From contig OX597838.1 of assembly GCA_951406725.2 (NCBI GenBank), positions 2,542,001-2,606,000 on the forward strand: a stretch of 64,000 nt of DNA. Reading direction: 5' to 3'. The notes beneath the pieces were generated by a model that did not search any database, was not told the origin of the DNA, and saw nothing but the letters and a program-made list of their open reading frames with translations. The translations under genes were made by a program, and so were the position numbers. The stretch is from Octopus vulgaris (Eukaryota). Positions 8,583 to 55,140 of the stretch are shown here, piece after piece (position 1 is the stretch's first letter; each line of letters begins with the position of its first letter).

Positions 8583-9136
8583 TGTGTCATCTCATGGATA
8601 AAGCGAATTTTTCAATTGCATGAACTAAAAGTCGTGGTGGGGCGGGATAAACTACATGCATTAACTTGCTATAAAAGCAGGTAGTAATTTTACCTTGTGC
8701 TTATTCTTAGTACAAGTTTTGAAGAGTGCAGTTTCATTTTAACACTTTTTCAAAACTATAATGGAAGTGGCAAAGGAACATATTCGGCACATTTTGCTTT
8801 ATGAGTTCAATAAAGGAAACAACGCAACGGAAAGTGCGAGAAATATTAATGCAGTCTATGGGGACTGGACAATAAGCATAAGCCAGTGGTTCCAGAAATT
8901 CCAAGCCCAAAACTCGAGCCTAGAACGTGAGCCTCATCCTGAAAGATCTGTAGAACAGAACTGGAGGAGTATTTTTTGTCACAGACAAGTGAATTATGGA
9001 AGAGGGGCCTTGCAAGTCTATCAGATAAATGGAGGAGCATTGTAGAAAATGAAGGAGAGTATAGTTTAAATTAAAAAACAAATTTTGAAAAATAAAAGAG
9101 GCATAAAAAACGCATTGTTTATGGGATGACCCAACA
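8583..9136 (+). mobile_element. internally deleted mariner with both TIRs
   Basis: N-terminal HTH MEVAKEHIRHILLYEFNKGNNATESARNINAVYGD (ORF 8761), C-terminal [24 protein letters not shown]; right TIR cgcattgtttatgggatgacccaa is the reverse complement of the left-TIR consensus. Confidence 0.9.
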
Positions 9137-19934: not shown

Positions 19935-20136
19935 TTCTACTGGAGGCACAATGCCTTAAATTTGGGGTGAGGGGACTACATCGATCCCAGTGGTTTACTG
20001 GTACTTAATTCATCGACCCCGAAAGGATGAAAGGTAAAGTCAACCTCGGCACAATTTGAACTCGGAACGTAGCGAGGGGCGAAGTACTGCGATGGATTTC
20101 GTCCAGCGTGCTAACGGTCCTGCCAACTCGCCGCCT
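19934..20136 (-). mobile_element. SINE family A
   Basis: ctggtacttaattcatcgaccccgaaaggatgaaagg...aatttgaactc...gccaactcgccgcc. Confidence 0.88.
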
Positions 20137-20394
20137 TTATTATGATGATGAGAAGAAGAAGAAGAAGAAGAAGAAGAAGAAGAAGAAGAAGAAGAAGAAG
20201 AAGAAGAAGAAGAAGAAGAAGAAGAAAGAAAGAAAGAAAGAAAGAAAGAAGAAGAAGAAGAAAGAAAGAAAGAAAGAAAGAAAGAAGAAGAAGAAGAAGA
20301 AGAAGAAGAAGAAGAAGAAGAAGAAGAAGAAGAAGAAGAAGAAGAAGAAGAAGAAAATAATGAATTATTTGAAATAATGAATTATTTGAAATGT

Positions 20395-31755: not shown

Positions 31756-31955
31756 AATTTTGCCACAAGGGCAGCAAAAGAGGACGAGTCGATTAAATCG
31801 ACCCTCTCAGTGTTCAACTTGTACTTAATTTATCGACCCCGAAAGGATGAAAGGCAAAGTGGACCTTGGCGGAATTTGAACTCAGAACGTCACAGCAGAC
31901 GAAATACCGCGAAGTATTTCGCCCAAGTGCTAACGATTCTGCCAGCGGGCTGCCT
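31756..31955 (-). mobile_element. SINE family A
   Basis: gtacttaatttatcgaccccgaaaggatgaaaggcaaagt...ggcggaatttgaactcagaacgt...gctaacgattctgccagc. Confidence 0.9.
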
Positions 31956-32948
31956 TAACAATGAGAAGAAGAAGAAGAAGAAGAAGAAGAAGAAGAAGAA
32001 GAAGGAGGAGGAGAAGAAGAAGAAGAAGAAAAAGAGAGAGAAGAGGAGGAGAAGAAGAAGAAGAAGAAGAAGAAGAAGGAGGAGGAGGAGGAGAAGAAGA
32101 AGAAGAAGAAGAAGGAAAAGAAGAAGAAGAAGAAGAAGAAGAAGAAGAAGAAGAAGAAGAAGAAGAAACCAAAATCATTATGTTAAAGGCATATACAACA
32201 TTATACAACGTGCATCGCTTTTATGCATAACACGAAATATATGCGTGTGTGTGTGTGTGTATGAACTCCTACACCCCTCACACACATTATACTTACATAG
32301 AAAAACATACATATACACATATGTTTATTCTATCAAAAGTTTCTATTCTCAAATTCGCCCTTTACATCTGTGTTCGTGACAGTCCTGAATCTCCTTCAAA
32401 AGAGTTGTTCTAGTCCTTCTTCAAATATTTCAGAACGTGTATGTGAGTTATTCATATCTGACTTTAAATGAACATCACATCAGAGCAACAAATAGGGCGG
32501 GTGAGATCTCATGTTGAAACAGAAACTATTGCATCATGGAAGAATCATATTTAGCGATATCAGAACACGGAAAAAATGTTACAGTCACATTTTCCAATAT
32601 ATTTTTTATATTATATTGCCAGGACATTTTAATGAAAGAATGGTCTCTGATGACCGATAGATACCTACTACTACTGTGTACGTAACACAGAAAGGTTTGT
32701 TACGGTATATCAATTAGGCTGGAGATACTGAAAGTAGTGATGCACAAATTAGTATTTTTACTGAGTAGCAAATGCTGTCATTGTATCAAAAAATACACAA
32801 GGAAAATACTAATACATTACGTTATACAGATCTGGGTAGTATAAGTAATAAAATATGAAAGTGTAACATCCTTTGACTAAGACCTGTCTTTATGTAACGT
32901 AACAGTGGCGTATGACTGGTCTCATTTGAGCCTTTTGAAGGCTATGTA

Positions 32949-34597: not shown

Positions 34598-34755
34598 AAT
34601 GCTTAGTTGCATTTCGTCCGTCCTTACGCTCTGAGTTCAAATTCCGCCAAGATCGTCTTCACCTTTCATCCCTTCTGGGTCGATAAATTAAGTACCAGTG
34701 AATCACTGGGGGTCGATGTAATCGACTAGTCCCCTCCCCTCAAATTTCGGGCCTT
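34598..34755 (+). mobile_element. SINE family A, 5'-truncated
   Basis: gcatttcgtccgtc...ctgagttcaaattccgcc...gggtcgataaattaagtaccag. Confidence 0.88.
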
Positions 34756-39166: not shown

Positions 39167-39729
39167 GATGAATCGCAGAGAACGAGAGAGTGTGATATAT
39201 AGAGAAGCCAGCCGAACTAGAGACGTACAATGACGCAGAGAGCGACTAGTTTAATAACCGAGTCAATTACAGCCGATCTTTTGTGCTGCGAAACATCCGT
39301 CCGTGACAGATCAACCGAGCTGGCTTTTCACCTGGATCGCTGCTACTTACGACTCTCGATATTTTCTGTGAACGGACGCTGATTAAACTGATGAGCACAA
39401 CATCTGCTTCTGAGCTTGAAACACAGCAACTCTCCTTACACTATGTTAGAATTCACATCATGCCAGTCTGTAGTTTGTAGGTTTAATAATTACACTGCCT
39501 GCTCGTGTGCGCCAATATACATATATGTGTGTGTGTGTGTATCTATCAGTGAATGTGTTTGTGCGTGATTGTATATGTGTGCGTTTGTTTGGACGTTTGC
39601 GTGCGTGTGCAGTGAACGTGTGTGTGTGTGTATATTTATGGCGTATAGGAATATGTATTTAGGTATACATTATATATATATATATATGTGTATGTATATA
39701 TGTATATATATATATATGCATGTATGTAC

Positions 39730-43280: not shown

Positions 43281-43420
43281 TGTATTTCGCCTGTCCTTAC
43301 GTTCTGAGTTCAAATTCCGCCGTGATCCACTTTGCCTTTCATCCTTTCGGAGTCGATAAATTAAGTACCTGTAACGTATGCGGTCGATCTAATCGACTGG
43401 CACCCACCCATAAAATTTCC
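43281..43420 (+). mobile_element. SINE family A, 5'-truncated
   Basis: ttacgttctgagttcaaattccgcc...tttgcctttcatcctttcggagtcgataaattaagtacc. Confidence 0.88.
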
Positions 43421-47586: not shown

Positions 47587-47774
47587 CTGTAATTTGAGGG
47601 GAGGGGATAGTCGATTAAATCGATCTCAGTACTTGACTGGTACTTCATTTATCGGCCCCGAAAGGGTGGAAGGCAAAGTGACCTCAGCGAAATTTGAACT
47701 CAGAACGTAAAGGCAGACGAAATGCCGTGAAGCGTTTCGCCCGGCGTGTTAACGACTCTGCCAGTTCGCCGCCT
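47587..47774 (-). mobile_element. SINE family A
   Basis: ctggtacttcatttatcggccccgaaagggtggaaggcaaagt...aatttgaactcagaacgtaaag...gccagttcgccgcc. Confidence 0.88.
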
Positions 47775-47804
47775 TTAATCCTTTCTAATATACGCACATA
47801 TATC

Positions 47805-52111: not shown

Positions 52112-52569
52112 TTTATAATTTATGCGTCTCTAAACAAACCGACAGAAATTTCTAAAAAATCCGTTATTACCGTATTGGTCCAATTTCGGGTTAATTCAAA
52201 GAATTCTCCCCTCTTCAGCAATAAATACGTGGGATATAAGTGAAATACTTACTCATACCCATGGAAAAAGCAAGCACAGGACTTAGTGCTTACTTTTTCC
52301 ATGGGTATGAGTAAGTATTTCACTTATATCCCACGTATTTATTGCTGAAGAGGGGAGAATTCTTTGAATTAACCCCGAAATTGGACCAATACGGTAATAA
52401 CGGATTTTTTAGAAATTTCTGTCGGTTTGTTTAGAGACGCATAAATTATAATGATTATTGACAATTTTTGTATTTTTTTCGGAATATTTGGCATTAGAAT
52501 TTTTCTTTTGCCCTTATCTTGTAAATTATTTATAAATTTAACCTTTAAAGGTATTTTTTGATATGCTGG

Positions 52570-53874: not shown

Positions 53875-54067
53875 CACACATATATACGTGTTTAGAACAC
53901 AAGCTTCTTACCAGTCAGCCACGCCTACGCCGAAAAAGTGCAACTTATTTACACAATAAATAATCTAAGGAATATTTTGCGAGGTAAATATTGTGAGGGT
54001 AAAGATCACGCTGAGGAATTTCCTGACGATGGGTCTTTTTATGGATGTGCAGCAGATGCAGAAGGGA

Positions 54068-54150
54068 GACTCGAGGACTGAGAGTTTCGTGCATTGGCAC
54101 TTCTCAGACTTTGATGGGTGCCAATTCACGAAACTTTCGGTTCGTGAGTT
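54068..54150 (+). ncRNA. candidate pri-miRNA hairpin
   Basis: 35-position stem (26 Watson-Crick, 7 G.U, 2 mismatches), 13-nt loop, CNNC (ctac 54157-54160) 18 nt after the predicted 3p end; not a family I recognise. Confidence 0.55.
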
Positions 54151-55140
54151 ATTCTGCTACATACTCTGTGTTATTTTTGCTAAATGCTAATAGACACACA
54201 CACACACACAAACATACATACAAATATATATATATATATATGCATATACATATATATATATATAAACGATATAGATATAGGTAGATAGAGAGATAGATGG
54301 GCATATGCATGCATACGTACATACATATATACGTACATAAAATATATACATAAATACATAGATACAAGCATACATATGTACATACACACACACACATACA
54401 TACATGCATGCATACATACATGTATACATAAATACATGAATACATACATACATGCATACATACATACATACATACATACATACATACATACATACATACA
54501 TACATACATACATACATACATACATACATACATACATACATACATACGTACATACATACATACATACATACATACATACATACATACAAATGTGCGTACT
54601 ACAAAACATAGGTATATTGAAGCATATGTGATAATGATAGACAGGGAGAGGTGTATATATTTGCGTGTTTGTGTTCATATATATTTCGAGTGTGCGCGCC
54701 TAAACAATTCAGCGACGAAGGGAGCGAGGAGTTGGACCAGAAGGGGAGCGAGAAGGGGAAAACAAAACATGGACCTGTAGACAGTTGTATATATTCCTGC
54801 ATGTGTGTGTGTGTGTGTGTGTGTGTGTATCAAGACAGACAGACACACACACAGACATACATACGTGTGAATGAGCGTGTGTTGTACAAGTGTAGAGACC
54901 TCTGCGTGTTGTGTATCAATAATATTCTAGTTTGACCTCGTTAGATGTGTCTGATCATGTTTAGCCCCGGCGCGGTGATTAAACCAGGAGTTGGTGGCGG
55001 GGGGGGGTGAGAATTGATGAATGATCAGCATAATCATGTGTGGCTAACTCTCTCAATTTCTCTCTCCCTTTATCTCTTTCTTTACACACACACACACACA
55101 TATATATGTATATACATTTATCTATATCTATCTATCTATC

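Follow-up and report, generated by a model that had tools for sequence, protein, structure and literature searches.

A microRNA-like hairpin in Octopus vulgaris is probably a relic of two head-to-head, hammerhead-bearing repeat ends

The window, a 64,000-nucleotide stretch of the Octopus vulgaris genome, contains a hairpin that had been proposed, from its sequence alone, as a lineage-specific microRNA. Our analysis indicates instead that it probably (probability about 0.6) consists of two decayed head-to-head repeat copies left by an old, inactive Penelope-like pseudo-LTR insertion, with the RNA fold as a by-product. Summed over the readings that share it, descent from two hammerhead-bearing repeat ends joined head to head is highly probable. 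We propose that new DNA would have folded back on a short palindrome, which a stem I strand forms together with the beginning of the ribozyme core, and that this fold-back would have primed reverse self-copying during retrotransposition, giving two identical arms (compare 52113-52451 below). The arms would then have diverged by point mutation, the decayed ribozymes would no longer cleave, and a defined regulatory RNA is probably not made from the locus.

Pairing and folding of the hairpin

54068-54150, plus strand: RNA hairpin of 35 bp (26 Watson-Crick, 7 G·U, 2 mismatches) with a 13-nt loop

The stem pairs 54068-54102 with 54150-54116 in register and without bulges, interrupted by an A·G mismatch at 54074/54144 and a C·U mismatch at 54092/54126, and it encloses the loop at 54103-54115. 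Our recomputation agreed exactly with the stem described in the sequence-only reading. The inverted repeat outruns these 35 bp: it stays in register from 54107/54111 to 54050/54168, weakly in its outer part, and the 58 paired positions about 54109 comprise 39 Watson-Crick, 10 G·U, 2 A·C and 7 other combinations. Because the helix continues to 54050/54168, the base of the stem lacks a clean single-stranded junction.

The plus-strand fold of 54050-54180 reached -60.7 kcal/mol (z -8.2; none of 200 shuffles attained this value) and the minus-strand fold of the same interval -43.4 kcal/mol (z -5.9), shuffle z-scores of this kind being evidence of an inverted repeat and not of selection. For 54068-54150 alone the respective values were -51.0 and -32.9 kcal/mol. 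Since the minus strand also folds strongly, the preference for the plus strand is a matter of degree; the fold had been called plus-strand specific, and of that claim the bias of G·U over A·C is real while the exclusivity is not. The hairpin ranked seventh among the best ten 100-nt folding windows, the other nine being microsatellites and the palindrome near 52.3 kb.

Repeats in the window

The window is rich in microsatellites, with 32% masked. A fragment of a mariner Mos1-type transposase helix-turn-helix (8743-9042, plus strand; Pfam HTH_48, E 2e-16) was the only clear Pfam match among the 150 of 152 frames scanned, and a tRNA search of the window found none. One SINE-like family is represented by at least 11 copies, 70-83% identical, including those at 176-376, 19950-20139, 31779-31956, 34598-34755, 43281-43419 and 47591-47780, alongside smaller repeat families (10940/37770/49218, 34832/58896, 2970/5843 and 4668/8608). 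Just upstream of the hairpin, 53899-53931 is a piece of a very high-copy repeat with a summed depth above 100,000 in contig set X1, probably a SINE end.

The arm is part of an interspersed repeat

Public contigs from four sequence sets (X1, X2, X3 and X12) were aligned to 53888-54190 at 80% likeness, with 76% of X1 covered and piece-level data listed for 32 of the 480 aligned pieces. Many different contigs cover the 5' arm, in all four sets. Summed contig depth over 54075-54096, which is not a copy number, was about 2,200 in X1 and 280-290 in X2; the single X2 contig that spans the unique flanks had a depth of 6.87. Among the 32 pieces listed, starts fell at 54037-54074 and ends mostly at 54099-54110, with 3-12 letters different. 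Loose ends before 54068 agreed with one another (X1, n=16, 0.75; X2, n=9, 0.72; X12, n=3, 0.58), and those behind 54102, 54106 and 54110 showed low agreement (0.44-0.57). Because the contigs pile up to 54102-54110 and have a common tail, the 5' arm lies in an interspersed repeat.

A high-copy MITE, the alternative that had been named as fatal to the microRNA proposal, would repeat the whole hairpin and have terminal inverted repeats at its outer ends. Matches span one arm and stop at the centre, and depth over the right arm was about 15-fold below that over the left. The repeated unit is thus one arm and not the whole hairpin, and a MITE was rejected; what survives of that alternative is that the hairpin derives from a repeat.

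Three features place the two copies relative to each other:

54038-54067, minus strand: tail of the left copy past its cleavage site, matching the family tail at 19 of 30 ungapped positions, by eye
54151-54194, plus strand: right-copy tail, which contains a short duplication and stops at a CA/TA microsatellite, compared by eye with the family tail
54104-54114, no strand: inverted junction, an 11-nt near-palindrome centred on 54109 (4 Watson-Crick pairs and 1 G·U), in which the copies overlap

Compared by eye, the right-copy tail agrees with the family tail at 8 of 10 positions (54151-54160) and then, with a 2-nt insertion, at 25 of 30 (54163-54194). Since tails match the family tail on both sides, both arms are copies of one element end, facing outward from 54109. 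At the paired positions 54057/54161 and 54061/54157 both arms differ from the family tail (again by eye), and these shared departures therefore fit one donor. We infer that the junction at 54104-54114 was the fold-back point.

An X1 piece (54074-54135) and an X2 piece (54070-54125) span the hairpin centre ungapped at about 81-84% identity; with fewer than 31 letters on one side, they hint that this inverted junction may recur at a second locus or more. Further copies of the arm were not found elsewhere in the 64-kb window, and the arm pattern had no match in metagenome contigs or in viral contigs. A looser pattern gave 15 loci with 0-3 of the 6 core bases, none of which resembled the core or the flanks.

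Type I hammerhead layout in both arms

A relaxed structure descriptor matched both arms, in opposite orientation (core numbering as in PMC4209133):

54062-54113, minus strand: left type I hammerhead relic; stem I 5' strand 54113-54108, core 54107-54101, stem II 54100-54089 (4 bp, G10.1-C11.1), GAAA 54088-54085, stem III 54085-54069 (4 bp, 9-nt loop), GUC triplet ending at 54068
54105-54156, plus strand: right type I hammerhead relic; stem I 5' strand 54105-54110, core 54111-54117, stem II 54118-54129 (3 of 4 bp), GAAA 54130-54133, stem III 54133-54149 (4 bp, one of them G·U), GUU triplet ending at 54150, stem I 3' strand 54151-54156

The order in each arm is stem I strand, 7-nt core, stem II with its 4-nt loop, GAAA, stem III, NUH triplet and stem I strand. 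Type I order, GAAA, G10.1-C11.1, stems II and III and the NUH triplet are thus present in both arms, and the length of 35 bp arises because the well-paired part spans core position 8 to the cleavage site. The descriptor was composed after the motif had been noticed; applied to both strands of the window (128 kb), it gave four matches, all in the arms of two palindromes. Among 5,000 dinucleotide shuffles of 54040-54180, 5 matched on either strand and none on both. The hammerhead fold is not the minimum-energy structure of either arm taken alone.

Both cores are damaged. The left retains 5 of 6 fixed bases, with C3 opposite A8, and the right 4 of 6, with U3 opposite G8 and A9 changed to G. An active core would read CUGANGA or carry the U3-A8 variant with its 3-8 pair; neither arm has such a core, and the 3-8 Watson-Crick pair is absent from both. 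Because single changes of C3 or G8 are reported to abolish cleavage by a Penelope ribozyme (PMC11167929), both relics are predicted to be inactive. The first loose letter is A behind 54106 (X1, X2 and X12) and behind 54102 (X1, X2 and X3), at low agreement, a hint that many family copies may carry the U3-A8 core variant, which has been reported for Penelope-like ribozymes (PMC4209133).

Rfam hammerhead models did not match the hairpin, even below threshold; minimal Penelope hammerheads were themselves detected by structure descriptors and not by Rfam, as reported in PMC4209133. With a core pattern based on sequence only, 19 overlapping matches were obtained, at 6 starts; both damaged arms escaped it. 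At 39388-39438 (plus strand), non-repetitive sequence contains a hammerhead-like core start with GAAA 25 nt on and poor helices; it could be the decayed end of a further element or have arisen by chance.

A young palindrome with the same layout

52113-52451, no strand: young palindrome, arms 52113-52277 and 52286-52451, 164 of 165 positions identical

This palindrome lies 1.7 kb upstream of the hairpin and belongs to another family, but has the same head-to-head layout. Each of its arms carries an intact type I hammerhead core (52218, minus strand; 52345, plus strand), with a G-C-rich 4-bp stem II closed by a 17-nt loop and a near-palindromic 4-bp stem III with a 3-nt loop, and a TA tract adjoins its left end. 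Judged by these features, it is a recent Penelope-type inverted insertion, whose ribozyme at 52345 is predicted to be active as a dimer.

Evidence for a probable Penelope-like origin

Penelope-like insertions often have an inverted 5'-truncated copy beside the pseudo-LTR, which is the usual site of the hammerheads (PMC8557442), and head-to-head Penelope repeats with a junction palindrome are described as common and interpreted as self-priming (PMC3846280). Dual minimal hammerheads on opposite strands are likewise reported in Penelope-like elements (PMC4209133). The hairpin shows an interspersed end repeat with a decayed type I hammerhead, and an inverted copy with a junction palindrome. Each arm has diverged from the common source by 0.16-0.22 substitutions per site; this is close to the Jukes-Cantor distance of 0.2 at which a Penelope-like expansion in Octopus vulgaris has been placed (PMC13282606), and we therefore count it in favor of a relic.

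Other findings fit less well. Metazoan Penelope ribozymes typically have a very short, palindromic stem III (PMC4209133, PMC6765202), a trait that is not universal (PMC4209133); in both arms of the hairpin stem III has 4 bp and a 9-nt loop. A reverse transcriptase or GIY-YIG remnant was not found in the 150 of 152 frames (at least 52 aa) that were scanned; truncated copies lack such an ORF. The G·U bias, the unusually good pairing over 35 bp and the lack of an Rfam hammerhead match all count against this reading.

Weighing recruitment as a microRNA

The same origin would also allow a different outcome, namely that the palindrome later came to serve as a lineage-specific microRNA and that selection kept only those changes that preserve plus-strand pairing. 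Drosha and Dicer would then release a 22-nt duplex, the likeliest product being the 3p arm at 54119-54140 with seed GCCAAUU. We consider recruitment unlikely, though credible. The candidate features are:

54080-54140, plus strand: hypothetical pre-miRNA, in register 54081-54102/54118-54139 or 54080-54101/54119-54140
54157-54160, plus strand: CNNC motif, at +17/+18 from the proposed 3' cut

The direction of change between the arms speaks for recruitment. Within the 35-bp core of the inverted repeat, each of the 7 transitions that separate the arms yields a G·U pair on the plus strand, and A·C never results (two-sided P 0.016); over 58 bp G·U exceeds A·C by 10 to 2 (P 0.039). In a neutral-decay simulation, run for either strand and a free window, at most 2 unpaired positions in 35 bp arose in 0.6-1.8% of 100,000 runs (P 0.006-0.02), though the simulated mismatch pool behind this figure may be enlarged by outer-part indels. 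A regional mutational strand bias was rejected as an explanation: 14 repeat copies elsewhere in the window carry 68 G·U-type versus 58 A·C-type changes. Because the G·U bias exceeds that of neutral decay and the nearby repeats are unbiased, recruitment stays in contention. Unpaired positions are also fewer in this 35-bp core than outside it (2 of 35 versus 6 of 18; Fisher P 0.014, with the boundary set after the fact), but arm-to-arm divergence is not significantly lower there (9 of 35 versus 8 of 18; P 0.22), which fits neutral ageing. Moreover, its microRNA look is the reason why the hairpin was singled out, probably from many palindromes of this kind, so that an event of about 1% is expected somewhere.

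The geometry that had been called Microprocessor-like bears scrutiny, with a 35-bp stem, a 13-nt loop and a CNNC 18 nt past the 3p end. The precursor would measure 59-61 nt with an inter-arm loop of 15-17 nt; in the second register, U stands at 3p position 1, the A·G mismatch at -6/+4 and CNNC at +17. Cytosine 54157 of the CNNC differs from the family tail, and the 3p arm has diverged far enough from the family to map uniquely. MirGeneDB asks for two arms of ~22 nt with ~19 pairs, a mollusc precursor below 80 nt and a loop of at least 8 nt, and in addition for reads of 20-26 nt that come from both arms, share uniform 5' ends and leave 2-nt 3' overhangs, and for conservation in a second species that is stronger in the arms than in loop and flanks; processing motifs lend support there but are no requirement (PMC11701709). 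The 59-nt precursor folds as a single hairpin at -30.6 kcal/mol, in keeping with the hairpin part of that definition. On the other side, the hairpin lacks a basal UG, an apical UGUG and, from the CmR motif, both the C and the purine, the CmR mismatch alone being present in one register; the helix runs on below the supposed basal junction; and a CNNC starts in a given 3-nt window 12% of the time by chance in unmasked window DNA.

A contig from a second organism (organism B) is identical to the locus at 242 of 244 positions over 53947-54190, and since the flanks are equally identical it indicates no extra conservation of the arms. Both of its differences lie outside the arms in the second register, but one of them, G54118C (one contig, depth 6.87), breaks a stem pair and alters the first base of the 3p arm as originally drawn. 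Transposon-derived microRNAs are well known (PMC7786948); our literature searches found no instance of a microRNA arising from a hammerhead pair. The arm motifs were absent from the relevant literature, a search of which gave 2 unrelated chance matches, and from the searched supplements of PMC9699675 and PMC11067994; earlier annotation is possible. Taken together, the microRNA proposal retains its geometry and strand bias and loses ground on the arm being a repeat and on both arms being hammerhead-like relics in opposite orientation.

Weighing other explanations

A relic of this kind could also be transcribed in passing, its long hairpin feeding heterogeneous endo-siRNAs or piRNAs, or ADAR editing, with no defined microRNA as product. 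The 58-bp imperfect helix would suit such a fate, Penelope copies are reported to yield small RNAs in rotifers (PMC3846280), and in octopus most editing affects intronic and 3'UTR hairpins (PMC9699675). Arm-like pieces do occur in X3 and X12, which are guessed to be RNA, but they come from other family copies only, and a transcript of the locus was not seen in X1, X2, X3 or X12; nor was the locus's own contig seen in the 76% of X1 covered. A word search of sequencing runs found the words in 2 of 24 rows (X1, 1.00; X2, 0.40), with no RNA run listed, and has no bearing on expression. The G·U pairs stem from both C-to-U and A-to-G changes (for example position 17 and A9), and because both contribute, inherited ADAR editing was rejected as their sole cause. 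We judge this fate improbable. Quite improbable is that the repeat is some other hammerhead-bearing or unrelated short element, such as a non-LTR retrozyme monomer, a SINE end or a MITE. The lack of a Penelope ORF in the frames scanned and the longer than usual stem III would be in line with such an element, as would the report that animal retrozymes also bear type I hammerheads (bioRxiv 10.64898/2026.07.22.740005). According to the same report, however, retrozymes form tandem arrays and derive from the pLTRs of Penelope elements, the head-to-head layout is a Penelope signature (PMC8557442, PMC3846280), and the contig depth described above speaks against a MITE.

A microRNA independent of repeats, possibly a distant relative of mir-19, is highly improbable; that the arm is a repeat by contig pile-up largely refutes it. 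The Rfam mir-19 model (RF00245) scored 37.3 bits on the plus strand (E 8.7e-6), but this is short of the gathering score of 50, the minus strand scored 32.4, the seed differs and two bases are missing. Moreover, mir-19 is a chordate family. The 52113-52451 palindrome, serving as a control, drew similar matches below threshold (mir-1684, 40.2 bits; mir-302, 34.1), and a mir-19 identity was rejected. The window has no Rfam match at gathering score, in keeping with the earlier statement that no conserved family was recognised; an E-value scan gave 449 sub-threshold matches, and the 150 listed nearly all paired microsatellites with miRNA models.

Implications

As a transposon relic, the hairpin is most likely ordinary. 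In cephalopod-type genomes, head-to-head Penelope ends that bear hammerheads could then be mistaken for microRNA genes. For the giant squid genome, 235 hammerhead matches were reported in a paper that also cautions against matches of miRNA models to inverted repeats (PMC6962438). If the hairpin is processed, the descent of a microRNA from two paired ribozymes could be traced here, and Penelope fold-back insertion would supply ready-made hairpins of ~35 bp, the size that Microprocessor takes, which bears on the source of the roughly 90 novel octopus microRNA families. That a microRNA gene was born here of two dead hammerheads, and that such palindromes fed the coleoid microRNA expansion, strikes us as doubtful. 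Elsewhere, mir-548 derives from Made1, and mir-28/151 from LINE2.

Comparison with known systems

The hairpin resembles the Penelope pseudo-LTR palindromes described in PMC3846280 and PMC8557442 in its overlapping head-to-head ends, the microsatellite alongside, the interspersed family and the hammerhead in each copy. It differs from them in that ~70-85 nt are left of each copy, no ORF was found in the frames scanned, the outer ends are too decayed to show a target-site duplication or a 30-40-bp tail, and stem III is longer. With the minimal Penelope hammerheads of PMC4209133 it shares the order of components, G10.1-C11.1, the placement on opposite strands and, as hinted by the loose ends, possibly the U3-A8 variant. 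In contrast to those ribozymes, its cores are damaged, with A9 changed in the right arm; it has a 4-bp stem II and a 4-bp stem III with a 9-nt loop, and lacks an extra base between 9 and 10.1. Its copies overlap, whereas those described in PMC4209133 lie 100-700 bp apart.

Like vertebrate transposon-derived microRNAs (PMC7786948), the hairpin is a lineage-restricted, precursor-sized product of an inverted transposon; unlike them, its source would be the end of a ribozyme-bearing retroelement, and its precursor is a candidate only. Precursor length, loop length and CNNC are as in the novel coleoid and Octopus microRNA families of PMC9699675, which rested on small-RNA reads and presence in two species; the present hairpin is a candidate.
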